From positions 6,908 to 70,907 of the forward strand of contig MNDT01000003.1 of NCBI GenBank assembly GCA_001915065.1: a stretch of DNA of 64,000 nucleotides. The letters run 5' to 3'. This document shows positions 3,990-39,763 of the stretch, piece after piece. The notes below the pieces were generated by a model that was not told the DNA's origin, ran no database searches, and saw only the letters and a program-made list of their open reading frames with translations. The DNA comes from an archaeon 13_2_20CM_2_53_6 (lineage in GTDB: Archaea > Thermoproteota > Bathyarchaeia > 40CM-2-53-6). The translations under genes and the position numbers were made by a program. Within the stretch, counting starts at the first letter, position 1; every line of letters begins with the position of its first letter.

Positions 3990-4871
3990 TTAGCCTTGCA
4001 TGTTTTTGCGGAAGTGGCTGTGACTAGCCCCAGAATCTTGCGCCCAGAATAGACGCGGCAATCGCAAACAATCCAGCCATGGGCAGTGTGACCATCCAGG
4101 CCGTCGCCATCCCCGGTGCCCGCGTTGCTGGGGGGTGTGTCCAATCAACGTCTTGGCCACCCGGTCCCCCCAAACTAGGGATCCGGCGACGACGGCGACG
4201 CCTACGATCACGTAGGGCAACCAGACAGTGTCCTCTGGTGTGCTTAGAAGGAGGAATGTTCCCAGCGCTGCCATTTTGGGAGCGTCGTTAACGCCCCTCG
4301 CGAAGGCGACACCTGCAGCGGAGCCCCAATCGGCTAACCCAACACGTCCCGAAGAAGTTTCACTCGCTTCAGCCCCTCGCCTGTGTAACAATCGGCTAAG
4401 TATGTAGACTCCTACCAATGCAGCAAACGGACCAGCGGCTAGGGGAAGGAGGATCCTCCAGATGAGAAAGTCCCATTGTAGACTCGAGGCACCGAGCAAG
4501 TAGACCGCCTGTACAATGATCGCGCCGACTATTGCGTGCGTTGTCGAGACTTGAATCCTGAGGAGAGTTGCGAGCAGGATCCAGGCCGCCGCACCTGCAA
4601 GCGCTGCTAGTATGAAGGAGGACCCGGGAGCGGTCTGGAGGAAGCTCTGGGGCGTGAACGCGGAGAACAGTCTGACCGAGATGACAATGGCAGCGACACT
4701 GCCAAGCCCGCTGAATATGCCCCCCCAGACAAGTGGCGAATATCGAGGCCGAAAGGTTGCTGTCTCAGGGTCTGTCATAAGAGCGATAATGCTCTTTCCA
4801 ACATCATTCGCTCCGTTGCCAAAGGCTAGGACGAACAAAACTGCCAGCCCAATGTCGGCCGTCACGGACAT
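3990..4871 (-). CDS. PiT-family inorganic phosphate transporter (C-terminal tail apparently out of frame)
   Basis: Carries GNGANDVGKS and ARGVNDAPKM signature pairs and VSTTHAIVGA. The last ~50 aa (Arg/Trp/His-rich) look non-native. A conserved AWMVTLP terminal helix lies in another frame (see finding). Confidence 0.7.
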   Translation of the reverse strand: MSVTADIGLAVLFVLAFGNGANDVGKSIIALMTDPETATFRPRYSPLVWGGIFSGLGSVAAIVISVRLFSAFTPQSFLQTAPGSSFILAALAGAAAWILLATLLRIQVSTTHAIVGAIIVQAVYLLGASSLQWDFLIWRILLPLAAGPFAALVGVYILSRLLHRRGAEASETSSGRVGLADWGSAAGVAFARGVNDAPKMAALGTFLLLSTPEDTVWLPYVIVGVAVVAGSLVWGDRVAKTLIGHTPQQRGHRGWRRPGWSHCPWLDCLRLPRLFWAQDSGASHSHFRKNMQG

Positions 4872-5310
4872 TAGTCTTCACCAAACTACCTTGTTCCGCC
4901 GGAACACGTTCCACTGTAGTGAAAGCCGAAAGCGTGAGGGCGATATTTGCAGATTGATACTATTGCCTTTGCAATACCTCAACAGTTTGGAGTAGCGGGC
5001 CGACAGCAGCTCATCGGAATGCCTTCCGATCCGATAGAGGTAGATGGCGACTCGGGGGGGTGTCTTGAGGAGACAGGCGTTGCGTCGACGATTTCGGCGA
5101 ACACAGTGGGATCATGCGTCATGCGATAAACCGTCCTCTCCCTCACGATCCGAGGGCTTGAATTAGATATATTCGAACTCTTGGTGCTTTGACCAAGTCG
5201 AGTCATTTGTGTTCTTCAATGTGTTGTGTGATGCATCTTGTGTTCTCTCGATGAGCGTTCAAATGCGTTGGATGAAATAACCGGATCGGATCTTGGGGGG
5301 AGAAAATCTC

Positions 5311-6078
5311 ATGAAGAAGCTATTCGGAGCTTCGCTAATCCTACTCTGCATCGGACTGGTCTCAGTAGCTCAGGGCAGCTCGACTGTCAGCACGGCTTTT
5401 GAGATGCCCGTCAATATCCAGACATCGATGTCCACCTCGGACTGCAGCAATTCGCCCGGGCCAACCATCACTCTTCAAGGAGCCTTGTCCCTAGGAGGAA
5501 TGGGAGTCAAACTCCTGTTCGAAAACAATGTCAAAGGCACACATACGCACACAGTAGAGTCGACTGCTAGCGCAACAGTCATCCCGCAGGGACAGAGTAT
5601 TCAGATTCCCAAGCAGCCCGTTCTCGGTGGGGTCGGCGGCAACCCGTACATCTGGCTACAGTTCATGGACGGTCACGATAACCCGCTCTCCGGCATGAAC
5701 TTCCTCGGAAGATGTGTCCAGGGTCTCTTCACAACATCCGCGGACTTCACCATCCCTTCCACTGCCATGGCACAGGTATCAGCAGTGGACTGCAGCAACA
5801 CCGGGTCTCACATCACTCTCTCGGGACAGCTAGCCCTATCAGGGATTAAGGCCAACCTCATCTTCGCCAATTCCGTGAACCTAGTCCACGAGAACACACA
5901 GTCTACAACTGTCAGCGTAGTCCTCATCCCAGCCGGCCAGACAATCTCGTTCGCAAAGCAACCATCTCTAGGCGGTGTAGGCGGAAACCCATGGATATTC
6001 CTCCAGTTCACTGATGGCAAGGGCAACACAGTGTCAGGCAGCTTCATGATGGGACGCTGCGTCCAGCTCTCCCGATAG
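5311..6078 (+). CDS. secreted protein built from two tandem copies of an unrecognised ~116-aa Cys-pair domain
   Basis: ORF track gives 5293-6078. ATG 5311 is preceded by GGGGGAG. Signal peptide is MKKLFGASLILLCIGLVSVAQG. The two halves align (DCSN...KQP.LGGVGGNP.I.LQF.DG...GRCVQ). Confidence 0.7.
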   Translation: MKKLFGASLILLCIGLVSVAQGSSTVSTAFEMPVNIQTSMSTSDCSNSPGPTITLQGALSLGGMGVKLLFENNVKGTHTHTVESTASATVIPQGQSIQIPKQPVLGGVGGNPYIWLQFMDGHDNPLSGMNFLGRCVQGLFTTSADFTIPSTAMAQVSAVDCSNTGSHITLSGQLALSGIKANLIFANSVNLVHENTQSTTVSVVLIPAGQTISFAKQPSLGGVGGNPWIFLQFTDGKGNTVSGSFMMGRCVQLSR

Positions 6079-6118
6079 GATAAGCATAGCCAAACGCGAC
6101 ACAGAACAATACTTCCCC

Positions 6119-6126
6119 TTTTTTTT
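6119..6126 (+). terminator. oligo-T (T8) tract downstream of the 5311-6078 gene
   Basis: A cccc-tttttttt-cc run lies 41 nt after the stop codon. Archaeal termination commonly uses oligo-T. Confidence 0.35.
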
Positions 6127-6360
6127 CCATTAATAATCGACTCCGTCACGGGACCGGGGATTTCTTGGGGATTCTCTAGAAAGTGGGGGGAGGTCACAAC
6201 GGTTGATTTCGTTTTGAGTGTACTTTTCGTGCGCGGCAGTTTATAGGAAGAGTCGCTCTACCGAGGATGGAGAGACAACGACAACGTTCAACGGCTGTTC
6301 TAGCTCTCGTGTGGGGAATCCCATTTGTGAGACTAGTTCTGGGGCCCGAGTGACCTGTCA

Positions 6361-6957
6361 ATGATCTCCCAAGTCAGGCAGGGACCCGAAAGGGTACCTG
6401 AGAGGAGGCTGGCGCTGGTCCACCGAGTCATCGTGCCTGACAAGGAGTATCCGAAAGAGTATGCAATTCTAGTGACGGATCGCCGATCAGTCTTCATCCG
6501 TCAGAGGAAGACGAGAAGGAGCTTTGTACTTCGCTACGAGATGAGGATTGGAACCGCGCTAGTGACAGACGTGATACCGAAGACCCTTGACGACTTTGAG
6601 CAAACCAGCCCTGAATCATTGATGGCAGATGACTCGAATCTCACCGTTCCACATGAGGCGGTTATCTCGCTGGCGATGAGAACGGAAGAGCATGAACGCC
6701 GTAAACGCGATCTTTTCCTGTGGTTGACGATGAGAAGGCAGGGGGAAGTCTTCCAAGTGTACAACTTCGAGATGAAATACCGGCTGGACCCGGATCGGGA
6801 CGCCATGATCAAATTCTACATGGTTCCTCTAGGAGCGTACTTCAAGCCCAGGAGACAGACCCAGAGCAGGGAAACGATCCTACGAGAATACGCAGCGGAC
6901 GCGCTTGAGATCTTTCAAAGGGTCCTTCCCCCGGATTGCATATTCGTAGCAGGATAG
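6361..6957 (+). CDS. hypothetical protein
   Basis: 198-aa ORF, soluble, with no recognisable motif. Convergent with the ATPase gene at 7000-8484. Confidence 0.5.
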   Translation: MISQVRQGPERVPERRLALVHRVIVPDKEYPKEYAILVTDRRSVFIRQRKTRRSFVLRYEMRIGTALVTDVIPKTLDDFEQTSPESLMADDSNLTVPHEAVISLAMRTEEHERRKRDLFLWLTMRRQGEVFQVYNFEMKYRLDPDRDAMIKFYMVPLGAYFKPRRQTQSRETILREYAADALEIFQRVLPPDCIFVAG

Positions 6958-6999
6958 CGGATCGTTCACATAGCGCAACTTCCAGTCTGTCAGCGCTGG

Positions 7000-8484
7000 T
7001 TACACTACTTCGGTGAGTCTTAATACGGGAAATCCTTTTTCGAATGAGAAGCTGACACCATGAATATTCGTAAATGGTTTGATGCCGTAGATAATCAATG
7101 AGCCGTTAATATTCTGCATCTTTACGTGATAGTCTGCTATTCTGAGAAAGTCCTCCCTAAGCTTGGTGGGCCTGGAGGCCAAGCCGATGCTGAGGGCCGC
7201 CGAATCCCGAATACTCGCACCAATGTCGGCAAGGCCAGGAAGGAATAGGTCTTCTCCATAGACTTGGACTATCTTGTCGAAATCGCTCGCCAGAACGATC
7301 GATGAGGAGACACTGGTCAACTCTTTCCAGCAAGCACCGAACAACAATGCATCATCCTCAAGGCTCCCTTTCAACAGCAACCGCCACTTCCTAGGGGGAA
7401 GAGTCTGGTTGAACTCTGCGATCCGAACCCTTTCTTCGAGAGCCTTCTGCCCGACGCATCGACCCAATGCTTCAGCTACGTTCTCAGAGCTGATAGTGCT
7501 GGTGGGAACGATGATCGAGGTGCCTCCCTGATTTACAAAGTTAGCGATGATGATCCTCAGTAGAAGTCTCACTTCGACAGGTGCAACGGTGTTGTTGAGG
7601 TCCAATAATAGCGAGGAGCCCTTCCTGATCCCACCCTTCAGCATCTTGTCCAGGTCGGAGCTGCCAGTCGAAAACGATGTTGCGGAGGGAGCAATAGACT
7701 CGGGCATCTTCGCCCTGGTCGGCGTAGCATCGACTATTTCGGAATCCGATAGGAATGTGAACCTGCCCTTGTCCAATGAGAATAGTCCTTGGCTGGTTTC
7801 TACTCTCAGCCCCCGTAGCTTGTTCACAGAGAGCGTCCTGACTCTACGGCCTTCCAGCTGAGATAGGGAGAGATTGACTACTCCGTCCACGAGATGAGAC
7901 ATGTCGCCCGTCTGTCCCCCCTCATTCACGAGCACAACACTCACCTTGCTCTCTTCAGGCTCGGAAAGGATAGCTGACTCGAGCATGCGGCGCCCTTCTT
8001 CGGTTGTGTTTCTGAGAGCCCCTTCCCAACTATCTATGACGATGAGGCTCCTCTGTGAGGAGTGTTTCATATTCAGAACTTTGCTGAGGATACTGTCAGC
8101 CTGCGAGACGCGAAAATCGTTGACTCCCTCAGGCACATTGCCTTTTACTGATCTACCCGATATCGAATCGACCACCTCGTTTAACCAGGGAAAATGTTTC
8201 CGCAGCCTGGGAGGCGAGACACGGCTCGAAATGTAAAGTCTGTTGGGAGGAACGGTGCGGGATCCGATCCGCGGTCCCTCCATCCGTCGAAGAAGCTCCA
8301 GTGCGAGAGTGGTCTTTCCAGTGCCAGGCGGACCTTGAATCAGCAGCACATTCCCGGTCGACTCCAAGAATTTCATGATGAGACCGAGTAGGTCAGCGCT
8401 TCCAGACTGGTCTGAAAGCGGGGTCCCAATTTCAACATCTGGGACCTCCAGTTCTGGGCCAGAGGGGTTGCCCTCAGTAATCAT
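7000..8484 (-). CDS. two-domain RecA-superfamily (KaiC/GvpD-like) ATPase; second domain lacks a P-loop
   Basis: 494 aa. N-domain has Walker [20 protein letters not shown] and Walker B-like SLIVIDSWEG. The second half starts like a KaiC domain (STGSSDLDKMLKGGIRKGSSLLLDL) but has no GxxGxGKT. Confidence 0.75.
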   Translation of the reverse strand: MITEGNPSGPELEVPDVEIGTPLSDQSGSADLLGLIMKFLESTGNVLLIQGPPGTGKTTLALELLRRMEGPRIGSRTVPPNRLYISSRVSPPRLRKHFPWLNEVVDSISGRSVKGNVPEGVNDFRVSQADSILSKVLNMKHSSQRSLIVIDSWEGALRNTTEEGRRMLESAILSEPEESKVSVVLVNEGGQTGDMSHLVDGVVNLSLSQLEGRRVRTLSVNKLRGLRVETSQGLFSLDKGRFTFLSDSEIVDATPTRAKMPESIAPSATSFSTGSSDLDKMLKGGIRKGSSLLLDLNNTVAPVEVRLLLRIIIANFVNQGGTSIIVPTSTISSENVAEALGRCVGQKALEERVRIAEFNQTLPPRKWRLLLKGSLEDDALLFGACWKELTSVSSSIVLASDFDKIVQVYGEDLFLPGLADIGASIRDSAALSIGLASRPTKLREDFLRIADYHVKMQNINGSLIIYGIKPFTNIHGVSFSFEKGFPVLRLTEVV

Positions 8485-8658
8485 TGAGAATCAGAGCCAT
8501 TGGAGTCCAACTTTTCTTACAAGTATTCCGTTACCAGCGCCCGCCCAGGTCATTGGAGTCCCGAATAGTATATCGAAACTAGAAATGTTCTGTATTCCGA
8601 TAGTACTGTCGTGTTCTTCCATAACAGGATCCTGACGCTTCTTCTGGGATCGTCCGCT

Positions 8659-9144
8659 TCAGCTCTTTCGACTCAGTATGTTGGAAACGTAGTCTTGGAA
8701 GGGCTTGTCGAACATTCCTTCCGAGGTTCGATGAACATCGCGGAATGCGGGATGTCTCGTCACGGCCTCGAGAAAGAGGCTCCACTGGTTCCAGGTGTCA
8801 CTGTCTATCCATTTCTTTCTGTAGAGCAGGTGAATCCTCTCAAATATTCCGTAGAGGAGGAGCATGTAGTTTCGGACAACCATGCTCTCTGGAGGTTGAG
8901 ATTGGAGCTCCGCGCGCGTGGGCATGTTTGCTCTCGCCATCTCCATGGGAAGTTTGCTCAACTGGGGATTCTCAACGAGCATCTTCATCGAGTCAGTATA
9001 ATCGTCCAATGCTCTCTGGTAGGCTGCCTCTCTCGTGGCATTGTTCTGGCTGCGGAAGGAGAGAATGAAGATTACAAGCGTTAGGGTCAGGACGATCGTC
9101 TGAGCAACAGTGCTCCAGACTACTGGGTCGGATATGTCAACCAA
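8659..9144 (-). CDS. hypothetical membrane-anchored protein
   Basis: 161 aa with a TTG start. One N-terminal TM helix (VAQTIVLTLTLVIFILSF), then a helical soluble part. Confidence 0.5.
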   Translation of the reverse strand: MVDISDPVVWSTVAQTIVLTLTLVIFILSFRSQNNATREAAYQRALDDYTDSMKMLVENPQLSKLPMEMARANMPTRAELQSQPPESMVVRNYMLLLYGIFERIHLLYRKKWIDSDTWNQWSLFLEAVTRHPAFRDVHRTSEGMFDKPFQDYVSNILSRKS

Positions 9145-9227
9145 CGCAGGGCAACCCTCTTGACAGGTCCATGGAATTTAACAGTACCATTCACTAAAGA
9201 TAGCTCGCCGAAAATACATTTGCGACT

Positions 9228-10633: not shown

Positions 10634-10650
10634 ACAAGCGAGCGGGATCG

Positions 10651-11105
10651 TTGGAGGAACCATCCCCGAGAAGATCGGTCGTTTCGGAGTTTGCTACACT
10701 GGACGGTGCCATGGAGGACCTTGGCGGAGCCGAGAAATCCGAGCATGGTGGTTGGATCTGGCCCTACTGGATTGAAGGGATCGGCAAGTTCAAGTTCGAC
10801 GAATTATTCGCGACCGACGCCCTACTGCCAGGACAGGGGACCTAGCAATGCTTCGCAAAGCCTGGCCATCTGTAAAAGACGAGCAAGGATTTACAAATCG
10901 GATGGACAATCTTCCGAAGTACCTGATTTCGAGTAACTTAGAAATCAAGTGGAACAATTCTCATCCCATCGAAGGAGACTCGGAGAAGAAGTGAAGGAGA
11001 TCAAAGAAATGCCTAGGCAAAAATATCGAGGAGGTTCAGCTCGGGCGTTGTTCTACTTCGCTGCGAGCGGGGCCAGAAGCCAACGTAGATTCGGTCCCTG
11101 AAAGG
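10651..11105 (+). pseudogene. dihydrofolate-reductase-like (RibD C-terminal domain family) gene with an in-frame TAG and two frame changes
   Basis: Frame 1: SVVSEFATLDGAMEDLGG..HGGWIWPYW...FDELFATDALLPGQGT*. Next frame: AWPSVKDEQGFTNRMDNLPKYLISSNLEIKWNNS. Third frame: EEVKEIKEMP... Confidence 0.65.
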
Positions 11106-11443: not shown

Positions 11444-13098
11444 CTAGCCTTGTCCTTTAGGGCTCAATCTTCTGAGCTTCTTTTCGCTGATGTCCTGAAT
11501 AAGGATGGATGCGCCTATTGTCCGGCCCGTGGGGTCGCTGATAGAGGTCACTGATAATGATACGTCGATACTGGCACCGTCCTTGCGCGTAAGCCGCGTC
11601 TCGTATGGAAGAATACGTCCATCGCGCTTGAGCCGCTCGAGGATTTCGGATTCTCCATTCTCGCCGGAAGGCATCAGGATACCCCCTTCTGACCTACAGC
11701 TTCGAGGGTACTGTAGCCGAAGATACGCTCTGCACCCTTGTTCCAGCTGACAATCGTGCCGTCCAAAGTTTCTTTTATGATGGCGTCGCTAGAGGTTTCC
11801 ACAATGGCGGCGAGACGGGCGCGCTCTTCCTCAACACGCCTGCGTTCTGAGATGTCGCGGATGGCGCTTGAGACCAGAACGCCTGAATCTGACTGGAGTG
11901 GGCTGAGGCTGATCTCGACGGGAAACTCTGTCCCGTCCTTTCGAAGTCCATAGAGTTCCATGCCCACTCCCATCTCACGTCTACGTGGCGTGGCGTGGAA
12001 GTCTGCACGGTGCGCTACATGTCCAGTCCGGAAGCGCTGAGGAATGAGGTCCTCCACCTTCAGGTTCAAGACTTCTTCACGAGCATAGCCGAACAATGCT
12101 TCGGTCTGCGAGTTTACCTGAACTATCCTGCCTTGAGCATCAGCGATGACCATCGCATCGGGGGCTGAATCGACTAGGGTCTCGAACCGGCTTTCAGCAG
12201 CTCGTGCTTTCCGCGCCTCTTCCTGAGCATCCAATCTCTCATGGACCAAAGCGCTCAGGGCAAGACCAACAGTAGCGAGCACCATTATCGAAAACTGGAG
12301 CGAGAGGAGAGCCGTGTTGGTGCTCCCGGAGCCATAGGGCCCGAGTCTCCCAAGTGTACCCCAGATAGCGATTGTTGAGAAGAGGAAGGTGGCTCCAGTC
12401 GCGCCCCTCGACCCGAAGCGTAACCCTGCCCAGACGATTATCGGAACGACCGTGAAGCTAAGCGCTACAGGGGGGATCGAGGAAAAGATCAGAGGCGCGA
12501 AAACGGTTGCGCCCGCGATTAACACCACCAGAATCAGCAGAACAAGTTCACGAAGACCACCGACAGGCACTTGCTTGGGACGGAGGACAAACGATATAAT
12601 TAGAGGTGCTACGATGAGAGCTCCTGACGCGTCGCCGAGCCACCAAGTCGTCCATACCACACCTTATAGGGACCACTGAACCAGCCCGTCCGCGGCCAGG
12701 CTTGTTGTTCCAACCGTGGCGCTGACCAAAGGGGCGGCCAGGCCGGCGGCAAGAACGAAGACTCCCAGGCTACGTGCCCCATTAAACGCGTGCACTCCAT
12801 GAGCGAAACGTACAACGAGCCAGAAGGCCATGAAGGCCTCCAAGGTATTTCCCGCCGCGATGGCTATGGACGTGATGGGACCGGAAGTCAGAGAATTGGC
12901 GGCAAAGGCTCCAATGTATATTCCGGGCCAGAGCCGCGGACCCCAGATCAGAAGTGCAGCGATCGCGAGACCGGTTGGAGGCCAGACCGGACTGGCGCTC
13001 GCGTTCAGCGTTGCGAACAGCCTCAGGCTGCTGAACGCTACAGCCATGTAGACAGCGGCAAAGATTCCATTGGAAACCAATATGCTCTCGTTGCGCAT
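11444..13098 (-). pseudogene. MASE1-PAS-PAS membrane sensor without output domain; interrupted by an in-frame TAA and one frame change
   Basis: Three consecutive ORFs. 12664-13098 and 11674-12660 share one frame and are separated by TAA (complement of 12664-12666: ..VQWSL*GVVWTTWWLGDASG). 11444-11674 continues the second PAS domain in the next frame (..RLTRKDGASIDVSL..IQDISEKK). Confidence 0.7.
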
Positions 13099-14705: not shown

Positions 14706-15115
14706 ATGGGTTCGGAGAAGGGTCTCCCGTTCGGACAGCTTAGATACTGTATGTTGGAAGCTCAAACGTCCAGAAGGACCTAGAATACTACACAGGGATC
14801 CTTGGTGCCAAGAAAGTCTGGGACATTTCCAGCTCTGGCACAAGGGTCGCGGCCCTTCGCCTGGGTAGAGGCCCAGCAATATTACTTGCAGATCATCGTC
14901 CGGCCGGAACTTGCATCCTAATCTTTCAAATCGATGATCTAGCGGCTGCGTCGAAGCAGCTTCGGAAAAAGGGCTGGAGGCGCGAGGGTGAAAGTTTCGA
15001 GATTCCCGAGGGACCCTGCTACAGGTTCAACGATCCGAGCGGCAACCCACTCGCCCTGCTAGAGGTGGTTAGGCCAAATGTCTTCGGATCGAGCTTTGAG
15101 GATGAGAGTCGATAG
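14706..15115 (+). pseudogene. VOC/glyoxalase-family protein with an N-terminal frame change
   Basis: ATG 14706 gives MGSEKGLPFGQL.., which stops at 14781. An open frame from 14744 (no start codon, so absent from the ORF track) encodes ILYVGSSNVQKDLEYYTGILGAKKVW...FEIPEGPCYRFNDPSGNPLALLEV, ending at TAG 15113-15115. Confidence 0.6.
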
Positions 15116-16252: not shown

Positions 16253-16636
16253 ATGACCATAGTCAGCGTTTCCATTCCCGAAGAGATGGTAGATGAGATG
16301 GACACCATTCAGAAGTCCATGGGCTTCTCAGGAAGATCGGAGCTCATCAGAGCAGCATTACGTGGTCTGATTGCAGACAACAGAGAGAAGAACGGCATCT
16401 CTGGCGAAGTAAATGCTCTCATAGTCGCAACCCATGACCAGTCCAACGAGGAGGCTGTTACCAGACTAAAACACTCCTTCGAAGATATTGTCAAGACCCA
16501 CCTTCACAACAAGCTCTCTCGAAGGAGCTGCGCCGAGCTCTTCCTAGTACAGGGCGACGGGTCAAAGATCACCTCAATGGCCAGCGCCTTCCAGAAAGAC
16601 GAAGGTATGAGGAGCGTCAAACTGGTAATAGTTTGA
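16253..16636 (+). CDS. nikR: nickel-responsive regulator NikR (RHH + ACT-like metal-binding domain)
   Basis: 127 aa. N-terminal RHH is VSVSIPEEMVDEMD...GFSGRSELIRAALRGL. The C-domain has ATHDQ...KTHLHNKL..CAELFLVQG, matching the NikR His/Cys pattern. Confidence 0.85.
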   Translation: MTIVSVSIPEEMVDEMDTIQKSMGFSGRSELIRAALRGLIADNREKNGISGEVNALIVATHDQSNEEAVTRLKHSFEDIVKTHLHNKLSRRSCAELFLVQGDGSKITSMASAFQKDEGMRSVKLVIV

Positions 16637-16791: not shown

Positions 16792-18665
16792 CTACTCTAC
16801 ACTTGCCGGGTTCTCTTTAGGTGGCGATCGTCGAGGAAGCGATTTCCACACTAACAACCCTACCCCTGCGATGGCTACTAGTACGGGCCCGACGTGGTCA
16901 TTGAGCAGGAAGCCGACAGGCGGCGCGTTATTGCTGAACCACTGTTGCATGTACAAGTTCTGCTGATAATCCCATGAGATCGATGCAAGTAGTCCAACTA
17001 TGGCAATGAACTCTGCTATTACGACGACCCGGACTCTTCTTCCAACAATGATTGGTTGTTGAATCGGCAGAGTCTTGGTCGTTGCTTGAGTCTTTGCTCG
17101 CGGGTTCGGGATCAGTAGCGAGCTCAAAGCACCGAAGGAGACGAAGATGGCAGCTGTAAACGCGGCCCAGCGTGTTCCCTGGGTAATTGCGTCGTAGAGC
17201 ACGTTAAGGACAGTTGGAATGTACTGTGGGGGTATCCCTGAAGGAATCTGGTCGACTCCGCCGGATAGTCCAGAGCTGATGAAACCGTCCACGAGTGACT
17301 GCGCGGAGGCCGGCAGATTGCTCTGTGCTATCGCTGTCGCCACGTCTCGCTCGTCAGCTGGCTGATAGCGAGACCCACGCCGGCCCCGTAGACGACTAGG
17401 ACTGGGTAGAAGTAGTAGATCGGGGTCGATGTCGAGGTTATCGCGAATATCGTGAATAGCGCTACTGCCTCCAGCATCATTCCTGCCGTGACTATCCATC
17501 TAGGGCCGAAACGGTTGGCGAGGGCTCCTGCGACGGGAGCGAAGATGAAGACCGAGATAGCCATTGGAAGGAAGGTTATTCCAGTTTGAATGGCCGAGAG
17601 TCCTTGGACGGTCTGGAAGTATATGGAGAAGATGAAAACGGCTCCAAATTCTCCCATTGCAACGATGAAGACGGTTAAGAGTCCGAACCTGAAACCAGGG
17701 AATCGCAGCAGGCTGAAATCGAAGAGTGGGACGCGACCCTTTCGCGCTCGTCTGATGTCATAGTAGGCGAAAGCGGCAAGCAAGACCACTCCTGAGGCTA
17801 TGGAGAAAGCGGGCAGAGAGAAGTTGGTGAAGGGCCAAGACTGTCCGAGGATAGAGAAGGGTTGGCTCTCGGTGAGCCAACCGTAGGTCTGACCCTCGAT
17901 GAGACCGAAGAGTAGGGCTGAGAGGCCCAGAGTGATGAGCGCGAGACCTCCATAGTCTGTTGTGTAGCTTGGATCCTTGAACCGGCTCTCACGTATCGCT
18001 AAGGCGGCTCCGATAAGAGCGACTGCCCCGATGGGTACGTTGATGAGGAAAGCCCAACGCCAAGTAAATGTCGGATCGGATGTGAAGTAGCCTCCCAGCA
18101 AGGGTCCGAGAACCGCAGCCGCTCCCGCGGTAGCACCCCAGATCCCGAAAGCGATGTTCCGAGACTTCCCGGTGAACGTTGTTGTCAGGATCGCCAGCGT
18201 CGCGGGGGCAGCCATCGCGGCGCCGAAGCCCTGAATCACTCTCCCTACAAGCATCTGGGTAAGGTTGCTTGATACGCCGTCGATGATGGACCCGAGGACG
18301 AATAGGGATATTCCCGCCGCGAAGATGCGCCTTCGGCCGAATTCGTCACTAAGTTTTCCCCAGGTGAGTATGAAGGAGCCGAAGATCAGTGCGTAGAGTG
18401 AGGTTATCCACTCCAGGTCCTTCAAGGAGATTTTGAAGTCGATCGAGATTGTCTTCAAGGCAACGATAACTATCGTAGCGTCGAGAACTATTATGGCAAG
18501 TGAGAGACACAAAATGAGAAGGGTGAGAATCTGTTTCCTCTCGATCCCTGTCCCGCCCTGAGAACCCTGTTCTTTCTGTCCAGTCTCCCATGTAGAGCTC
18601 GGTTCAGGCGCTTCTGAGACTACCGTCGCATCGTTGCTTGTCCTTCCAGCTCTATTCTCACTCAA
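16792..18665 (-). pseudogene. MFS transporter (DHA2/EmrB-type, 14-TMS) split into two overlapping ORFs by a frame change
   Basis: 17328-18665 (445 aa) has the typical EmrB/QacA N-terminal 12-13 TMS and ends ..GLAISQLTSETWRQR*. 16792-17499 continues in the next frame (DVATAIAQSNLPASAQ...) with the last TMS and a C-terminal extension. Confidence 0.75.
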
Positions 18666-20961: not shown

Positions 20962-21387
20962 TTGAACGCGCAGAAAGTCTTCGCACAGACTCACGTTGCA
21001 CTGTACCGGATGTCTCGGGGGAGGCTGGGAGGCCGGTTTCGGAAGTCCCCCGTGCTTCTCCTGACGACCATCGGTAGGAAGAGTCGGAAGAAGCGGACAA
21101 CTCCTGTTCTGTATATTGAAGACGGGGAGAACATGGTCCTAGTAGCGTCCAATGCTGGTAAGGACCGGGATCCGTTCTGGTGGATGAATCTGAAAGACGA
21201 CCCCTCGGCTATTGTTCAGCTGAGGGGCCGGACAGTGGAAGTGAGGGCGGCACAGGCGACGCCCGAGGAGAAGAGTAGATACTGGCCCTCTCTGGTGAAG
21301 ATGTACCCAACCTATGATGACTATCAGAAGAAGACCGAGAGAGAGATTCCAGTAGTAATACTCAGGCCGCTGAGATCCAAATGCTAG
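20962..21387 (+). CDS. deazaflavin (F420)-dependent nitroreductase-family oxidoreductase (DDN-like)
   Basis: 141 aa (TTG start). VLLLTTIGRKSRKKRTTPVLY..DG...VASNAG.DRDP.WWMNL...YWP..VKMYPTYDDYQKKTEREIPVVIL matches the PF04075-type pattern. Confidence 0.8.
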   Translation: MNAQKVFAQTHVALYRMSRGRLGGRFRKSPVLLLTTIGRKSRKKRTTPVLYIEDGENMVLVASNAGKDRDPFWWMNLKDDPSAIVQLRGRTVEVRAAQATPEEKSRYWPSLVKMYPTYDDYQKKTEREIPVVILRPLRSKC

Positions 21388-21496: not shown

Positions 21497-22069
21497 ACTT
21501 CCGTCTTCGACAATAATGGTCTCGACTGGCCTCCAGGAGCTCGACCAGCTCCTTGTCTCTACGCGACGAGACTCTCTGTCTCCGAGGTTCTCCAAGATGT
21601 TAGAGCGTACAACATCGAGCCTTGGCTGCAGCCCACATGGCTGTCGGGCCACGGAGGCCAGGGGAAGCTGGATCTGAACGATCTAACAGGCCTCTCATTC
21701 AACATCAAGGAGGTTGTGGGGAAGGCGGATGATAGACGAGTCAGAGTCATTACTGATGTTCTTTCTTCGCTGCTGATGCTCAACCCGCCTGAGACCGTCT
21801 ACCGGTTTCTTTCACAGCTCTTTGCTGAGCTGAAAAAATACGATTCAGTCTTCTTCGCTACCGTCGAAGAGGGGATGCACAAGCCCGAGGTTCTTGCCGC
21901 GATGAGTCAGATCTTCGACGGAGTACTAGAGCTCAAGCTCTACGAGGAGAGCTTCAGAATCGTGCCCCTCTTGAGGGTCAGGAAGATGAGGGGGGTCCCG
22001 CCCCAGCTCGGATACTACCGCTTCACGATGTCGCATGGAAGGATGGAGGTCACGTCATATGCCAAGTGA
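21497..22069 (+). pseudogene. KaiC-like (RecA-superfamily) ATPase remnant lacking the P-loop segment
   Basis: ATG 21516 gives MVSTGLQELDQLL (KaiC-domain N-terminus), then leaves frame. The next frame, open from 21497, encodes ..SVSEVLQDVRAYNIEPW...RVRVITDVLSSLL..VFFATVEEGMH..LLRVRKMRG. No GxxGxGKT occurs in any frame. Confidence 0.55.
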
Positions 22070-22804
22070 ACTGGGTTACGTGTTCCTCGTATCGTGGCTC
22101 TTCGTGACAGCGATATTTCTCTACTCAGCGTACTGGTCCTTCGTGATCAGAAGGGCACTGGTGACCAGCCTCTACCGGAAGCGTTCTGGGTCGGAGGAAT
22201 GGGAGTATACTTCGTCGCGCTCTCTGTCTTTCTCGCGGTCGCTCTGACGCTTGAGATCAATGCGCTTTCTATCAACATACTCGGAGGGCTCATCATATCA
22301 TTCGGATTCATCCTGATATTTCTCTGGATAGACTCGACGGTCAGCATAGCGCGCCGATCAGACCCATTGTTCAGGGACACATTGCGCTGGAGTAAGCTTC
22401 GATACTTGTTCTGGCTGGTCACTATTGGAGGAGCGGTCGGGGCACTGTTCACATCCATCAATTCTGGTTTCTCGACTGTCGCGGGTTTCGGGGGAGCACT
22501 GTTCTTCGGGGCGGTCGCTTTGCTGTTGAGCGCGAAGAGGTCTGGCGATATGACCTTGAGACGCCACTTGACATGGACCGGGCTCTGCATATTCCTCTTG
22601 TGGCTGAGCAGCCAGCTAGAGCAGCCGCTGTCGTACCACTTTGCTGATCCTTTCATCGTCCAGTCTCTTACCGTACCGTTGGTTGCTGCTGGCGCCTATT
22701 CCCTCTACAGAAGCGCTAAGTCGCTTGTCCCGCTTGGACATCTGATGAGCACGGACGCGGATGCCCAGAGCATTACTATGTCTCCAGCGGGCACTTCTTC
22801 ATAG
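22059..22804 (+). CDS. polytopic membrane protein, hypothetical (probable frame change near 22150-22190)
   Basis: ORF 22094-22804 (236 aa) has at least 6 TM helices. ATG 22059 overlaps the upstream stop and encodes a good first TM (MPSELGYVFLVSWLFVTAIFLYSAYW) in the neighbouring frame. Confidence 0.5.
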
Positions 22805-23084
22805 CAAGGGTATTGCCGAGGATCTGGTACATGGAGAGGTACGAGAACGCGCGCGATCAATGCGAGGCTCGACCTAGTCTTGATCTTCCATTTTCTCAGA
22901 AATTGCTTCTCATCACTGGTCAGTAGAGGAGAGCCTTTTGGTGCTTTGTACAAGCCGATCAGTCTTCGCTCCTCCTCAGTCAAACGTCCATTTGACACAG
23001 CCCTGTGAAGTCGGGCAATCCAGTCGTGGTCGGCCTGCGGCTCGTCTTGGGGCAGCTCCTCATCAGCTGACTCAAAGAGTCGGG

Positions 23085-23443
23085 TTACTGAAGCATTCCC
23101 GGATATTTCTTTGAGAAGCCTGCGACATTCGGTCCTAGGGAGAGTATTGAGAGCAGGGTCCGTGTGATGCTGAATGTTCTGGCTCTTCCCTGGATCATCG
23201 CGCCGCAGGCGTTGGTCGTGAGCTGTTTGTTGTCGACGATCAGGGATACTCTGGGGTTTTCCTTGATCATCTTGTATTTTGCGGCACTGACTGGTGTGAC
23301 GAAGTAGACTCTGAGGTCCGAGTAGTAGAAGGCTACTGGGGATAGCTGTAGAGTTCGCCCTTCCTGGAGATCGTTGTCAGATATCCAATGTTGGCCGTCT
23401 TCAGGACGTCTGATACTTCTGGCGGGATCGGTGCGGTTTCCAT
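23085..23443 (-). pseudogene. pyridoxamine-5'-phosphate-oxidase (PPOX)-fold protein with a frame change at a G4/C4 run
   Basis: ATG at 23443 gives METAPIPPEVSDVLKTANIGYLTTISRKGELYSYPQ*. The next frame continues VAFYYSDLRVYFVTPVSAAKYKMIKENPRVSLIVDN (ORF 23085-23270). One extra C in tatCCCCag would join them. Confidence 0.7.
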
Positions 23444-23450: not shown

Positions 23451-24218
23451 CTAAGCGTAGACCTCTTCTCTTGCTAGGACCTCTATACCATTGTCTCTGA
23501 TTACAAAAGGACGGGGCGCAGTATCGATCTTGGTGCCTCGCATCTTTGAGATCTGAATCGTTCGGACTCCCTTCCGGACAATCCGTAGCATTATCACACC
23601 CTCAGCTAGATACTCCTCCGGTTGCAGTCTTCGATTCTCTCCGGTCGAAAGGAGCTCGCTTGTCAGTAGACAGGTTGCGCCAGTTGACTGGAGCGCTTCC
23701 ACAATGTCTAGGACGGCCGGCCGCCTCTCCTCGATCCTTGGGAAGCGGAAGACTAGGTCTGAGATCGAGTCTAGAACGATCCGCTTGGGCGATAGCTTGT
23801 CTATTCCCTCCTGCATCAGTTCTATCAGATTCGCTAAGCCGAGTTCTTTGCCGCCGACGGGAATGCGTCCCACTCTGGCCTGTTCTGGTATCCGGCGTAC
23901 TTCTGTGGCGTCGACATAGCCGAATTGCCGCTTTTTCTCGAGGCTTGCAAGGTCCATCCCGAGATCTCGCATCTCAGTCATGAGACGGGATTTTGACTCG
24001 TTCATTCCTATGAATACCCCGTTCTCGTTCCTCTCAGTCGCTCCCCAGTGCAGGTACTGGGAGCAGAGAATGGTCTTTCCCGTGCCAGGTTCTCCCAGGA
24101 CTAGGACGACTCGGCCTTCCGGGATCCCACCGCCTAGCATGCTGTCGAGGCCTTCGATCCCGGAGGCAAGCTTAGACGTTGGGGTGGACTCCTCGCGACC
24201 CTCTGTTGTCGTGGGCAT
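23451..24218 (-). CDS. single-domain KaiC-like RecA-superfamily ATPase
   Basis: 255 aa with SGIEGLDSMLGGGIPEGRVVLVLGEPGTGKT, Walker B RIVLDSISDL and ISKMRGT. Confidence 0.85.
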   Translation of the reverse strand: MPTTTEGREESTPTSKLASGIEGLDSMLGGGIPEGRVVLVLGEPGTGKTILCSQYLHWGATERNENGVFIGMNESKSRLMTEMRDLGMDLASLEKKRQFGYVDATEVRRIPEQARVGRIPVGGKELGLANLIELMQEGIDKLSPKRIVLDSISDLVFRFPRIEERRPAVLDIVEALQSTGATCLLTSELLSTGENRRLQPEEYLAEGVIMLRIVRKGVRTIQISKMRGTKIDTAPRPFVIRDNGIEVLAREEVYA

Positions 24219-30094: not shown

Positions 30095-30096
30095 AG

Positions 30097-30948: not shown

Positions 30949-30951
30949 CTT

Positions 30952-34695: not shown

Positions 34696-34876
34696 TCTCC
34701 ACAAACTCGTGACCGAAGCACTCATACTGACGACGAGTGGAGCGACTGTTAGCCAGAGCATCCTCTCTTCGAGACGAAGTGACTTCAGGAAGAGTTGAAT
34801 CGGAACACTATTCTAATGACTACTGATGAGGAATACTAAAAGGGGGAGCCAAGATTCGTGACTCCTCCGCTGTAAT

Positions 34877-36715
34877 GTGCTAGAACAAAGTGTAGGACTC
34901 TTGGACGGGTTTCCGGTTCCGGTTGAATCAGCATACAAACAAATTGGCGCATATGGAGTCATCGGCAACACTAGGACGGTGGCCCTTGTCGGCTATGATG
35001 GATCTATTGATTGGTGTTGTCTGCCCAGATTCGACTCGCCCAGCCTCTTCGCGGCGATACTCGGCAACAGGACAGGCGGCAGATGGAGTCTCGCACCAGT
35101 CAGGAAAGGCCATGCCTCCCAAACTTATCTGAAAAACACCAACATTCTCGTAACCGAGTTCAGCGTAGACGGTTCGAGAGTAATAGCTACGGATTTCATG
35201 CCATGCTCTAACTCTAGAGATGCATGGTCGGCTCCGCCCGAGATCCATAGGGTTCTGAACTGTGTTGAGGGAAAGATCAGATTTCGACTCGATCTTGATC
35301 CCCGTTTCGACTATGGAGTGATCCGACCTGATGTGGGGGTGGATGGGAGGAATGCCTCGTTTAGGAGCCCGCGGGACGAGATGGTCTTGGCATCTACGGT
35401 TCGGCTTAAGCCTCCCAGGACTGGCCACCTCTCAACCGATTTTCAGATGTCTCGAGGGGATCGAGAGATTTTCGTTTTGAGCTATGGGGAGGCTGAACCT
35501 CGTGAGGTGGAGGAATACAACACTATCGAGCAGTTGCAGCAGACGGAGATTTTCTGGAGGACTTGGGTTCGAAAGTTGCGTTATGAGGGACGTTGGCGGA
35601 GGGAGGTGATACGCTCCGCGCTGACGCTGAAGATGCTTGTCTATGCTCCGACAGGGGCTATTGTTGCTGCGCCCACCACTTCGTTGCCTGAGGTCTTTGG
35701 GGGGGACATGAACTGGGACTATCGGTATTCTTGGATTCGAGATTCTGCCCATTCGCTCTGGGCCTTTCATCTGCTTGGAGACACCAGCGAGGCGGAGAGG
35801 TATCTCCGCTGGCTCATCGAAACCGACCCCGCTCTAGATCTCAATCTCCGGCTCATGTACACAATTCAGGGCCAGCCTGTCGCGCCGGAGAGGGCCGTAT
35901 CTTCACTTGAGGGCTACCGAGGGAGTAAGCCTGTGAGGATTGGGAACGCGGCGGCGCAACAGTTCCAGATGGACGCCTACGGCTACATGCTGGACGCGCT
36001 GTACTTTTCGACGAGGCACGGCGTTTCTATCACCCGGGGGATGTACTATCGGTTCGTGAAGCCTCTCGCTGATTTTATCGTCGATCACTGGCGCCTTCCT
36101 GGAAACGGTATCTGGGAGCTCCGGGGCAAGAAACGGCATTATGTTGAGACGAAGGCCATGTGCTATGCGGGTCTTGAGAGGGCTGTGGAGATCGCAAGGG
36201 TCTCCAAGCATCTGGAGGACGTGCCGAAGTGGCGGAGGGCCATGCATGAGATCAGAAGAGAGGTCTTGTCAAAAGGCTGGTCTGGTAAGAGGAGCGCTTT
36301 TCGGATGCATTATGGAACAGACTCGTTGGACTCTGCCAGCCTACTGATGCCTCTCATAGGATTCACCAAGCCTCGAGACAGACGCGTCGTCAGCACGGTG
36401 GACGCAGTGATGAAGGAGCTCGCACGGAACTCGTTGCTCTACCGATACAAACCGAACAGCGGATCGAAAAACCATGAGGGAGCCTTCCTAGTTTGCAGCT
36501 TCTGGCTCGTAGCCTGCCTCGCGAGGATGGGCCGGACAAAAAGAGCGCTAACCATTTTCAAGGACCTCTTGGGCTACGCGAACCACGTGGGACTATACTC
36601 TGAGGAGATTAATCCTGACACTCTGGAGTTTATGGGGAACTTTCCACAAGCCTTCAGTCACATGGGACTGATAATGGCAGCGTTCGAACTCGACAACGCT
36701 CTAGATGGGAAGTGA
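34877..36715 (+). CDS. glycoside hydrolase family 15 (glucoamylase/trehalase-like)
   Basis: 612 aa (GTG start). YGVIGNTRTVALVGYDGSIDWCCLPRFDSPSLFAAIL, WDYRYSWIRDSA, the (alpha/alpha)6 catalytic region and FPQAFSHMGLI. Confidence 0.9.
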   Translation: MLEQSVGLLDGFPVPVESAYKQIGAYGVIGNTRTVALVGYDGSIDWCCLPRFDSPSLFAAILGNRTGGRWSLAPVRKGHASQTYLKNTNILVTEFSVDGSRVIATDFMPCSNSRDAWSAPPEIHRVLNCVEGKIRFRLDLDPRFDYGVIRPDVGVDGRNASFRSPRDEMVLASTVRLKPPRTGHLSTDFQMSRGDREIFVLSYGEAEPREVEEYNTIEQLQQTEIFWRTWVRKLRYEGRWRREVIRSALTLKMLVYAPTGAIVAAPTTSLPEVFGGDMNWDYRYSWIRDSAHSLWAFHLLGDTSEAERYLRWLIETDPALDLNLRLMYTIQGQPVAPERAVSSLEGYRGSKPVRIGNAAAQQFQMDAYGYMLDALYFSTRHGVSITRGMYYRFVKPLADFIVDHWRLPGNGIWELRGKKRHYVETKAMCYAGLERAVEIARVSKHLEDVPKWRRAMHEIRREVLSKGWSGKRSAFRMHYGTDSLDSASLLMPLIGFTKPRDRRVVSTVDAVMKELARNSLLYRYKPNSGSKNHEGAFLVCSFWLVACLARMGRTKRALTIFKDLLGYANHVGLYSEEINPDTLEFMGNFPQAFSHMGLIMAAFELDNALDGK

Positions 36716-36799
36716 GGCGCGTCTCCCACCGACATCGGACTGGACAGGAAGACTCTTGACATCCCCAATATCAGACAATCAGTAGCGACTGCCCTATTA

Positions 36800-37282
36800 T
36801 CACAGGATTATTTCGAGTTCAATCTCGTCTCGAAGGGGGATTCCCTCCTTTCCCAGTATTGGGATCTCAGGCTTCAACCTCCTGGACTTTTCGAGCGCAT
36901 TCGGGTAGACGGCGACGATGTGAAGCCCCCACTTCTGATAGAACCGCAGAGAACTCAGATTGTCGTTTGTGGTTATGAGCCAGAGCCGTTTACAGCGAGC
37001 CTTGATGGCCGCGTCTCTCACGGCGTTGAGAAGTGATGATCCCGTTCCTGTTCCTTCCGAGAGACTGTTGATGGTGACGACCTCGCATTCGTCACCCTGT
37101 ACTCTGAACGTGACGAGCCCGACTACCTTCTCGTCAGCGACTGCAGCGAAGCCTTCTAGCTCGCTAGGGTCGAACATTCTCCCCTTGCTCACGACCCGGG
37201 TGGACCCCCACTGGTCTTGTATGAAGCTCGTCACCATCGAACGATCCTCCCTGGTCAACGGTCTGAGACGAACCTGTAGCAA
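36800..37282 (-). CDS. GNAT-family N-acetyltransferase
   Basis: 160 aa with an acetyl-CoA site-like GTGTGSSLLNAV..A and FYQKWGL. Confidence 0.8.
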   Translation of the reverse strand: MLQVRLRPLTREDRSMVTSFIQDQWGSTRVVSKGRMFDPSELEGFAAVADEKVVGLVTFRVQGDECEVVTINSLSEGTGTGSSLLNAVRDAAIKARCKRLWLITTNDNLSSLRFYQKWGLHIVAVYPNALEKSRRLKPEIPILGKEGIPLRDEIELEIIL

Positions 37283-37361
37283 GGCTGATCCTCCTAGCCG
37301 AGCAGGTCCTAGTCCGAGTCTATTAGAAGATGGTTCCTCGAATAGCTACCTCGAGTGTAAC

Positions 37362-37562
37362 TTACCTGGAAACTATGAGGTCACGCTTAGTTGTGCGTCT
37401 AAGCCTCCTACCGTCGGATCGTGTTAAAGGCCCTTGGAGTTTGACCCATTCTGGTATTATGATTGCTCTGAGCAGCTCTTGGAGTGTTATGCCTCGCTCC
37501 TGGGCTATCCTATTCAGTTCGTCGTATACTGTTTGTTCTACTGTTTGCATGAATTTTGTCAA
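37362..37562 (-). CDS. small RHH-like protein (paralog of 43926-44192)
   Basis: 66 aa. M(T)KFMQTVEQTVYDELNRIAQERGITLQELLRAIIIPEWVK aligns with MPKFMQSLGIETYHRLVTEAKARDVTVQSLIRTVIVPDWLK. Confidence 0.45.
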   Translation of the reverse strand: MTKFMQTVEQTVYDELNRIAQERGITLQELLRAIIIPEWVKLQGPLTRSDGRRLRRTTKRDLIVSR

Positions 37563-38067
37563 ATTTTCTCATCTCGCACATACTCAAGCCGGGAGTCGGA
37601 TCTTTGACGGGAGAGAAGTGTTGGAATCCCAGAGGGTCTTGGTAGCCCTTGAAGGTACCCTACGGGTCTAGCAACGGTGCCGGCCGCGATTACTACCGCG
37701 ACTCGCGGACGGAGGCGACCACGACATTACCGATTCCCGTCCGAATTTTTTTTCTGCGAAATTCGGCCAGCCCTTTTCGGGTCTAAAAACCTGTTTTTGT
37801 TCCAAGTTTTGTACAGTGGTGTTCTAACTTTTCTGCCGGTCAGAACCATTTTTCACCGGCCAGCTCAATTACGCGATCGATTTCTAGTCATACAGAGTAA
37901 AAAGAGTATAGAATCCCCCGTTCCCAACAGACTTCCACACGCCAATCGAAGGCGAAAAGTGACTTGTCCAACGCAGATGTCGGAAAAGTCTTACTCTTAT
38001 AGCGCGATTCCCCGTTTGTGTACTCTAGATTCTAATCTTTTAGATTCTCCCTGGTTCATGAAAGAGT

Positions 38068-39297
38068 GTGGCAGCCGAGACAGCATTCCTCCTCGATCTT
38101 GGCATCCTAGCTGTCTCAGCCTTGATCTTCAGCCTGATCTTTGCCAGGTTCAAACTGCCGATCGTCTCCGCTCAAATATTGGCTGGAATGACGGTAGGAC
38201 CATTCGCCCTCGGCTGGGTCGTAGACCAGACTGTCATAGGAGAGATCGCTTCCGTCGGGATCGTCCTCCTTCTCTTCCTCCTCGGCCTCGAACTCGACCC
38301 CGTCGAGTTGCGAAAGATAGCCAGGCAGGTGGTGCCTCTGACCTTCGTCGAAGTAGGCATCACATCTGCCTTTGTCCTCGCAGGTTCATACGTGCTTGGT
38401 CTGACGCTGATCTGGTCCGTGATCTTTGCCATGGCAGTGAGCATCAGCAGCACTGCCATTGTAGGCAAGATTATTCTCGAGAGGCGGATGTTTCAGGCCC
38501 AAGAGTCGAAATTCCTCGTCGGTTTGATGATAGCCGAAGACTTCGTCGCAGTCGGATTCTTGATAGTTCTGTCCACAATCACTTCCCCGGGAGCCGCATC
38601 CGCGTCCCAACAGCTCACCCGGATAGTCGAGATCGGACTCGGCGGGATCGGGCTTCTCGTCTTGGGCTACTTGGTAGCCAGATATCTGGCCCGCATAGCG
38701 ATCGACTATCTCAGCTCGTATGATGTAGATTTAGAAGAAATCCCATTTCTGTTTGCGCTTGCTCTCGGCGTTCTCTTCGCCGTACTGGCCGCGGTTCTCG
38801 GATATTCGCCAGGCATCGGGGCCTTCGTGATCGGGCTCTCAATCAGGGGAAAACAGTCAAGATTCTTGACTGAGAAGCTTTCCACGATCAAGGACCTGTT
38901 CCTGGTCCTCTTCTTCGTCTCAATGGGGAGCCTGATCGATCCATTCTCGGCGCTTGGCCTCGGGATCGCGATCATACTGGCTCTAGCGCTGGTGGTGGGA
39001 GGGAAGCTTGTTGGCGGATTCGCCGTCGGAAATGTTCTTTCCCGCGGTCAACATAATCCAGGGATCAGGCCATGGTCCTTCGGAACCTGGCTGGTTCCTA
39101 GAGGAGAGTTCTCTTTCGTAATAGGACAGTTCGCCCTGGCCATCGGGCTCATCAGTCGAGACATCTTCTCACTCATAGGCCTCTCGGTCCTCATCAGTGC
39201 CCTGGTCGGCCCATTCCTCCAGAGACTGGTCGAGCCGAAAATGGCGGAGAGCAGTCATCTGCTCAGGCCGCAGAAGGATGAGACGTCGGACCGATGA
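38068..39297 (+). CDS. cation:proton antiporter (CPA2/Kef-type)
   Basis: 409 aa (GTG start), 11-12 TM. FKLP.IVSAQILAGMTVGP, LLLFLLGLELD and PRGEFSFVIG. Confidence 0.85.
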   Translation: MAAETAFLLDLGILAVSALIFSLIFARFKLPIVSAQILAGMTVGPFALGWVVDQTVIGEIASVGIVLLLFLLGLELDPVELRKIARQVVPLTFVEVGITSAFVLAGSYVLGLTLIWSVIFAMAVSISSTAIVGKIILERRMFQAQESKFLVGLMIAEDFVAVGFLIVLSTITSPGAASASQQLTRIVEIGLGGIGLLVLGYLVARYLARIAIDYLSSYDVDLEEIPFLFALALGVLFAVLAAVLGYSPGIGAFVIGLSIRGKQSRFLTEKLSTIKDLFLVLFFVSMGSLIDPFSALGLGIAIILALALVVGGKLVGGFAVGNVLSRGQHNPGIRPWSFGTWLVPRGEFSFVIGQFALAIGLISRDIFSLIGLSVLISALVGPFLQRLVEPKMAESSHLLRPQKDETSDR

Positions 39298-39387
39298 AAC
39301 CTTGGACCGAGGACCTTAGGCAATTGTAACTTGCACGCTTCTAGTCGATGAAACCCTTCGCCCAGGAACGGCCTGGGAGATTGTTCC

Positions 39388-39763
39388 TCAGGTCAGGCCA
39401 TTCACGGCTGCGGACTTCAGGTTCGCCAGAAAGAATCCCCACCGGGCAAGCTCCAACGGGATGCCATGCTCAGCCCATCCGCCTTGGGATATTCTATTTC
39501 TAGGGTGAGGGTCGTAAGCCTGCCGTGAAGGTACATGCGTACTATCACCCCGTCCCCTCCCGCTGCAAACGGAACGAAGAGTGCTTCGGTCCCAAGTAAA
39601 GGACCTTGTAGTCAACTGGTCGCTCACCGGGCCAACTCAGCTTTAGCATTTTTCCAACTGCTATTCTCCCTTTGATAGCGGCCGGAAACCAGGAGCAAAG
39701 CCCCCTTCGAGAGGCAATCAGCCTCCACACCCGTTTCTTCCCAACCGGAAGAATCATTTTCAT
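39388..39763 (-). pseudogene. SRPBCC/Aha1-like domain gene spread over three frames
   Basis: Frame a: ILPVGKKRVWRLIASRRGLCSWFP...VDYKVLYLGPKHSSFRLQ. Frame b: GGDGVIVRMYLHGRLTTLTLEIEYP. Frame c: QGGWAEHGIPLELARWGFFLANLKSAAVNG. Confidence 0.55.

Follow-up and report, generated by a model that had tools for sequence, protein, structure and literature searches.

Frame breaks of one modulo-3 class in nine genes of a soil Bathyarchaeia genome: probably pieces dropped in assembly together with local gene decay

The window analysed here, a stretch of 64,000 nucleotides (nt) from the soil archaeon 13_2_20CM_2_53_6 (GenBank assembly GCA_001915065.1, contig MNDT01000003.1), corresponds to C33:6908-70907 of a 1.79-Mb bin with 69 contigs and 53% GC, and it contains nine genes whose reading frames are broken. 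These are the genes for a PiT phosphate transporter, a DHFR-like protein, a MASE1-PAS-PAS sensor, a VOC/glyoxalase protein, an MFS transporter, a KaiC-like protein, a membrane protein, a PNPOx-like (PPOX) protein and an SRPBCC-like protein, the coordinates of all of them being given in Table 1. The window also carries an intron-containing tRNA gene and the genes for Cdc48, Alba, Hjc and a family-B polymerase. The genome (hereafter also the record) is labelled G000, its contigs being named C1, C10, C25, C33, C51, C63 and so on.

The original prediction, made from the sequence of the window, listed at least eleven breaks in the nine genes, all of one polarity, and ascribed them to single bases lost in a deletion-biased, unpolished long-read assembly. 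With the phases re-derived from stop-to-stop frames and with frameshift-aware dynamic-programming alignments of protein to DNA, made against orthologues or intact alleles, all nine genes proved to be broken at or near the predicted positions. The uniform polarity was likewise upheld, every break shifting the phase by -1 on the plus strand and by +1 on the minus strand, i.e. being one base short modulo 3. The number of breaks rises to about 12, the additional one lying in the SRPBCC gene, where alignment reveals three breaks instead of two. Only two of the 12 sites—the C5 of the PAS sensor and the G4 of PPOX—fall in a homopolymer (a run of at least four), the other ten lying outside such runs. 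No break of the opposite sign was found inside the window by hexamer-based frame segmentation and comparison with the sister genome; an apparent one at ~29270 turned out to be two adjacent ABC-ATPase genes present in both genomes. The segmentation, done with a hidden Markov model, revealed no further unexplained switch on the same strand. The density of breaks here, about 12 in 36 kb, greatly exceeds that of the rest of the genome; against one sister contig, three of the ~9 detectable events lie within this 3.6% of the genome.

Public soil metagenomes of many studies contain the stretch of the window, in at least 20 runs. Assembled contigs, not raw reads, of four of these runs (X1, X2, X6 and X9, from four different studies) were compared with the record over window positions 3800-63300. 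A further 22 loci (L001-L022) were taken from other assemblies: ENA MEGAHIT contigs, CRIT18 scaffolds, three bins at NCBI and Logan contigs. The orthologues were drawn from the same-genus genomes G002, G005, G006, G007, G011, G014 and G016; these were used for the short DHFR-like, SRPBCC, membrane protein and PPOX fragments, on which Pfam gave no match, and a pattern scan of close relatives with the membrane protein gave no match either. Over tens of kilobases the record is 99.9-100% identical to the other assemblies with almost no one-nucleotide gaps, and it is therefore not an error-rich long-read assembly. It has the appearance of a short-read assembly that was scaffolded, with runs of N of 18, 74 and 125 and a smallest contig of 7959 nt. 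The project behind the sister assemblies used Illumina reads, idba_ud scaffolds and bins made from scaffolds >8 kb (PMC5103831), and this bin was presumably produced by the same pipeline.

Concerning the seven genes other than those of the two transporters, independent assemblies of at least four soil samples show every break with exactly the same bases, the long contigs of the four runs and the loci L009-L022 matching the window at the break sites without a gap. Intact single-frame orthologues of six of them (membrane protein, SRPBCC, VOC, DHFR-like, KaiC-like and PPOX) occur in relatives. Together with the identity of the break sites in independent contigs, these single open frames indicate that the lesions in the seven genes are real and not errors.

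The lesions themselves are of several kinds. The DHFR-like gene has the two predicted frameshifts, and in addition an in-frame stop (10843-10845) and the loss of ~50 codons (~150 bases) in front of the C-terminal FSSGVV motif (11026-11082), thus four lesions in all as compared with three in SRPBCC; its sequence is identical in X1, X2, X6 and L012/L013, except for a further one-nucleotide deletion at 11043 in X1 and X9. The break of the PAS sensor was correctly located: X2, X6, part of X9 and L013 have C6, the intact allele, and X1, L012 and the window have C5. Other assemblies call a single PAS sensor gene of 474 amino acids (aa). A second lesion of that gene, the TAA at 12664-12666 in the MASE1 part, is private to the record, all four runs having G at 12664 (TAC, Tyr). 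It should be noted that the MASE1-PAS-PAS protein, even in its intact allele, ends without a kinase, GGDEF or DNA-binding output domain. The VOC break, expected at ~14740, was confirmed slightly downstream, between the 14-residue N-terminus and the domain; single-frame orthologues with ~70% identity exist in five same-genus genomes, three of which were aligned, and no difference was seen at the site in X1, X2 and X9.

The KaiC-like remnant is indeed broken near the predicted ~21555, not by a single missing base but by a deletion of ~112 nt, residues 29-63 of the G005 protein, including Walker A, having no counterpart in any frame; the sequence is the same in all runs and loci. In the membrane protein, which is one open frame in G014, G006, G007 and G011 (59-64% identity), one nucleotide is missing within the predicted interval of ~22150-22190. 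This break is common to all runs, and individual strains show further deletions, L009 having lost 8 nt at 22493 and X1/L014 1 nt at 22508. For PPOX, the supposition of one base missing from the G4 was wrong, since two bases are extra: a 98.5%-identical strain (L011) has G2 and an intact PNPOx_N protein of 118 aa, the alignment with G005 likewise leaves 2 nt extra in the window, and X1, X2 and X9 share the G4. Past the PPOX stop (GMLQ and stop), the next frame weakly continues the sister C-terminus (ELPQDE) at 23008-23118 on the minus strand, which may reflect an older shift of the same sign common to all strains, the "intact" L011 allele included. The SRPBCC region, finally, is identical in X1, X2, X6 and X9.

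Strains other than the one recorded have added indels to the same genes, of 1 nt at 11043, 11299, 12470 and 22508 and of 8 nt at 22493, and this is the behaviour of unconstrained sequence; the single-nucleotide polymorphisms (SNPs), only one to four per pseudogene fragment, are too few for a codon-position test of relaxed selection. Elsewhere in the genus, SRPBCC is independently fragmented in G016 (L099/L102/L104; G016:C41:32649-33013), and the membrane protein and the MFS gene are broken in G005 (G005:C8:872166-872781 and G005:C8:586356-588347, respectively). The same accessory genes are decaying in parallel across the genus.

The two transporter genes behave differently, their breaks being confined to this record. 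The PiT lesion had been placed in the G6 at 4130-4135, but the intact alleles have the same G6, and the real gap corresponds to a 145-nt piece that is present in all eight loci L001-L008 and in the contigs of X1, X2, X6 and X9, where it yields an intact protein of 330 aa. In a similar way, the MFS gene is broken near the predicted ~17340, not for want of a single base but of a 139-nt piece, which is present in L009-L014 and in the runs X1, X2 and X9, yielding an intact protein of 670 aa. For both pieces there is neither microhomology at the junction nor another copy in the genome. In 14 further assemblies or contig sets from this population both genes are intact, and in the record they look frameshifted because 145 and 139 both equal 1 modulo 3. 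The suspicion of the original prediction that the apparent pseudogenes may be artefacts thus holds for these two of the nine genes only, the other seven being real.

A third piece of this kind, 120 nt long, is absent from the Cdc48/VAT gene, in frame and hence with no break, although it comprises 40 aa including YEDIGGL. Every locus spanning the site has it (seven of L015-L022), a 97%-identical strain among them, as do the contigs of the runs, and no microhomology exists between flank and piece. When the genome was compared with a 1.05-Mb contig of G005, further dropped pieces emerged, both out of frame and in frame (Table 1). The contigs of the runs confirm 118 nt at C25:29581/29582 and ~148 nt at C63:55332/55333, as well as the breakpoints at C10:16668, C10:17681 and C63:57139, so that for five pieces (145, 139, 120, 118 and ~148 nt) the missing sequence has been found at the exact point in every other assembly of the population. 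The dropped pieces measure ~100-165 nt, and at least 13 of them were counted over about half the genome, with an SNP divergence of ~0.05%; none was seen in C1:1-20000. The sampled 31-mers across the junctions (two to three words) are absent from all indexed runs, the flanks being found in at least 20.

Table 1. Broken genes of the window, dropped pieces of the record and the intron-containing tRNA gene (positions refer to the window unless a contig is named)
Feature	Position	Strand	Basis	Lesion or state
PiT/PHO4 phosphate transporter	4024..4871	-	Pfam PHO4	145 coding nt absent between 4113/4114
DHFR-like (RibD_C-type) pseudogene	10651..11085	+	alignment to 200-aa orthologue in G005	1 nt missing near 10859 and near 10975
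MASE1-PAS-PAS sensor	11444..13098	-	Pfam	frameshift at C5 11682-11686
VOC/glyoxalase pseudogene	14706..15115	+	Pfam Glyoxalase	1 nt missing near 14749
MFS transporter	16792..18665	-	Pfam MFS_1	139 coding nt absent between 17347/17348
KaiC-like (DUF7504) remnant	21516..22069	+	Pfam DUF7504/KaiC on C-terminal part	deletion at ~21555-21560
Membrane protein pseudogene	22059..22804	+		1 nt missing near 22180
PNPOx-like (PPOX) gene	23085..23443	-		two extra G, G4 at 23338-23341
SRPBCC-like pseudogene	39344..39770	-	intact 159-aa homologue in G002	breaks near 39546, 39454 and 39413
Cdc48/VAT	44323..46461	-		120 nt absent between 45986/45987, in frame
Dropped pieces, out of frame	C10:17681, C15:12426, C25:29581, C63:55332, C63:57139, probably C25:39938			
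Dropped pieces, in frame	C10:16668, C12:42503, C27:26496, C30:1266			
tRNA gene, intron-containing	54225-54336	-		112 nt

With regard to the origin of the dropped pieces, it was considered whether they are mobile inserts or introns of the other assemblies, but this was ruled out as they encode conserved protein cores and restore the frame. Collapse of a de Bruijn bubble and replication slippage were also rejected, because there are no shared bases at the junctions and no other genomic copies of the 145-nt and 139-nt pieces. At C51:8466-8590, 125 N stand for 230 real bases in X1 and X2, which means that the scaffolder underestimated that gap by ~100 nt. On the same contig, the record lacks, at C51:10509, a GGA that is present in all four runs. 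With such an error, true gaps of 100-165 nt would be estimated at about zero or less and closed with no N between the flanks, and scaffold joins closed at zero length would then be the source of the dropped pieces. It appears, therefore, that the absence of the 145-, 139- and 120-nt pieces is an assembly artefact, probably arising at such joins.

Based on the above results, the breaks are best explained by two unrelated processes, an assembly artefact in PiT and MFS and real gene decay in the other seven genes, to which we assign a probability of about 0.8. On the one side, the record would lose 100-165 nt at some scaffold joins, the loss in Cdc48 happening to stay in frame. On the other side, the seven accessory genes at 10.6-39.8 kb would be true pseudogenes of the natural population, inactivated by one-nucleotide deletions, one two-nucleotide insertion, two deletions of ~110-150 nt and nonsense codons, with intact alleles of the PAS sensor and PPOX still segregating and with other strains adding lesions. 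What has been observed directly is that the lesions exist, that they are reproducible and that the orthologues are intact, whereas the scaffold joins as the cause of the dropped pieces and the deletional bias as the source of the sign are inferred. The seven-gene zone represents an ordinary case of local accessory-gene decay in a grassland-soil Bathyarchaeia genome.

Several points weigh against this explanation. With a deletion share of 65-80%, the probability that 10-12 natural lesions have the same sign is ~0.01-0.1, and nothing predisposes the two large natural deletions to fall in the shared class. The lengths of the dropped pieces are distributed modulo 3 as ~9 in class 1, five in class 0 and none in class 2, which an artefact of scaffold joins does not predict; moreover, all runs were compared as contigs, which does not prove that the junctions are absent from the raw reads. 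Whether an event is attributed to this or to the sister genome depends on a filter for coding potential, and the counts are small. It is also odd that the uniform class includes the insertion of two bases along with the two large natural deletions, and that the DHFR-like and SRPBCC genes are each back in the starting frame after three shifts of the same sign. The low probability of a shared sign is tempered by its having been examined post hoc and by the fact that two of the eleven breaks originally listed are artefacts that landed in the class by accident.

The sign of the indels was also followed outside the window. A first genome-wide tally against G005, in which the stop-to-stop open reading frames (ORFs) of the sister contig were used for tblastn (51 pairs of high-scoring segments, 45 frame switches), gave, unfiltered, 14 small events short by one and 12 long by one. 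This tally was contaminated by shadow-frame ORFs, by intergenic indels (e.g. upstream of rpoN) and by the sister's own frameshifts, which enter with inverted sign; the remedy was a reciprocal search combined with a hexamer coding filter that, at 40 codons, has a sensitivity of 92% and gives 1% of false frames. After filtering, 5-7 events short by one and 3-4 long by one remain in this genome, the corresponding numbers for genes broken in G005 being 7 and 3-4. The gene of a giant repeat protein near C25:61.37 kb, outside the window, is a robust case of the opposite sign. Among the one-nucleotide indels that differ between near-identical strains and whose derived state can be inferred, there are eight deletions (11043, 11299, 11681, 12470, 21512, 22508, 40918 and C25:43769) and two insertions (13466 and 54583). 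The original expectation that biological indels should be of mixed sign is weakly founded in view of these recent ones of the population. A deletion share of 65-80% fits the deletional bias of prokaryotes, and the uniform sign would accordingly reflect ordinary deletional bias plus chance in about 12 events rather than sequencing chemistry.

The alternative that survives best, although it is improbable, assumes a bias towards the loss of one base that is unusually strong and specific to the lineage, owing for example to replication or repair enzymes of the clade, and exceeds ordinary deletional bias. It would agree with the eight deletions per two insertions among the strain singletons, with the ratio of ~2:1 in favour of short-by-one events in two genomes of the genus and with the single sign of all 10-12 lesions in the window. 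These counts are, however, small and were assembled post hoc, the ratios of 2:1 to 4:1 remain within the range generally reported for prokaryotic pseudogenes, and the insertion of two bases and the two large deletions are left unexplained.

Slightly less probable still is the possibility that the pieces of 118-148 nt are real deletions of the strain represented by the bin. The record may well be a distinct strain, as it has private SNPs against all four runs at 5748, 6225, 12664 and 22019, and natural deletions of similar size do occur in the KaiC-like and DHFR-like pseudogenes. Real deletions would nevertheless have had to hit conserved cores of housekeeping genes, e.g. the YEDIGGL of Cdc48, and at least 13 of them in about half the genome stand against an SNP divergence of only ~0.05%. 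The lack of microhomology, the junction words found in no indexed run while the flanks are in at least 20, and the scaffold gaps that the same record underestimates by ~100 nt speak against them as well.

It is highly improbable that, as originally proposed, most of the breaks arose by the erroneous loss of single bases in an unpolished assembly with a deletion bias, the genes being intact in the organism. Such errors could account for the PiT and MFS genes being intact elsewhere, for the private TAA at 12664 and for the record being one base short of X1 and X2 at C1:4470 and C1:7054. The stretch C1:1-8000, which holds the latter two differences, is SNP-dense and variable between strains. The sequence at most break sites is, however, identical across independent samples and assemblers, few of the sites are in homopolymers, four lesions are not one-nucleotide events, the identity of 99.9-100% extends over tens of kilobases without scattered indels, and the sign is mixed outside the window. 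The mechanism of long-read error is wrong even for the two artefacts, because what is missing there belongs to the dropped pieces of 118-148 nt and is not a matter of single nucleotides in homopolymers.

Just as little credence can be given to the idea that the genes are functional by recoding, whether through programmed -1 ribosomal frameshifting or through a base added by transcriptional slippage, so that soil Bathyarchaeia might tolerate or decode genes one base short and purge those of the opposite class: only this idea would tie the natural lesions together biologically, including the uniform sign and the return of the DHFR-like and SRPBCC genes to the starting frame after three shifts, but it is contradicted by the plain single frames of the orthologues in sister species, the absence of a shared slippery motif, the nonsense codons and large deletions in the same genes (loss of Walker A included), the frameshifts of 8 nt and 1 nt added by strains and the coexistence of intact alleles.

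The result matters chiefly for quality control. The record serves as the species representative in genome catalogues, and it silently lacks pieces of 100-165 nt in at least 12 genes, those for PiT, MFS and Cdc48 among them; inferences on gene content and pseudogenes drawn from it hence need checking against other assemblies. As for the biology, the zone shows clearly, on a small scale, how an uncultured archaeon that is abundant in soil is losing accessory genes, with intact and broken alleles coexisting.

Two further features of the window were observed. In the tRNA gene, ~51-53 nt are lacking from contigs that belong to other organisms of the same runs, 54258/54260 being followed there directly by 54312. 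Dense patches of mostly synonymous SNPs are confined to single genes, at 16253-16636, 20962-21387, 23451-24218 and 11690-12660, an example being the PAS gene of L009 with 11 synonymous and no non-synonymous differences; these patches look like recombination tracts.

Concerning the known systems, the formation of pseudogenes in prokaryotes, which reportedly proceeds with a deletional bias, resembles the present case in the inactivation of non-essential genes by small and mostly deletional indels, the accumulating lesions, the intact orthologues and the segregating intact alleles. It differs in that the present archaeon, a free-living one from soil, has seven such genes within 30 kb and that every lesion belongs to one modulo-3 class. 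Local misassembly at joins, said to have been encountered in the curation of idba_ud and metaSPAdes scaffolds, has in common with the dropped pieces the loss exactly at the join, the lack of a repeat or microhomology, the completeness of other assemblies and the wrong size of an N gap; here, however, no N marks the join, the loss is visible only by comparison and the lengths are never 2 modulo 3. Homopolymer deletion errors in long-read assemblies, which reportedly split genes, would also give many genes that look frameshifted, missing bases being in excess, whereas the present sites are mostly outside homopolymers, short-read assemblies show the lesions again and one-nucleotide gaps are not scattered over the genome. 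Programmed frameshifting and rescue by slippage are exemplified by dnaX, prfB and insertion sequence elements, and slippage at poly(A) is said to occur in endosymbionts; two-frame genes with a constant direction of the shift are shared with these systems, but the genes described here have no conserved slippery site, their orthologues are unshifted, and they carry nonsense codons and large deletions.

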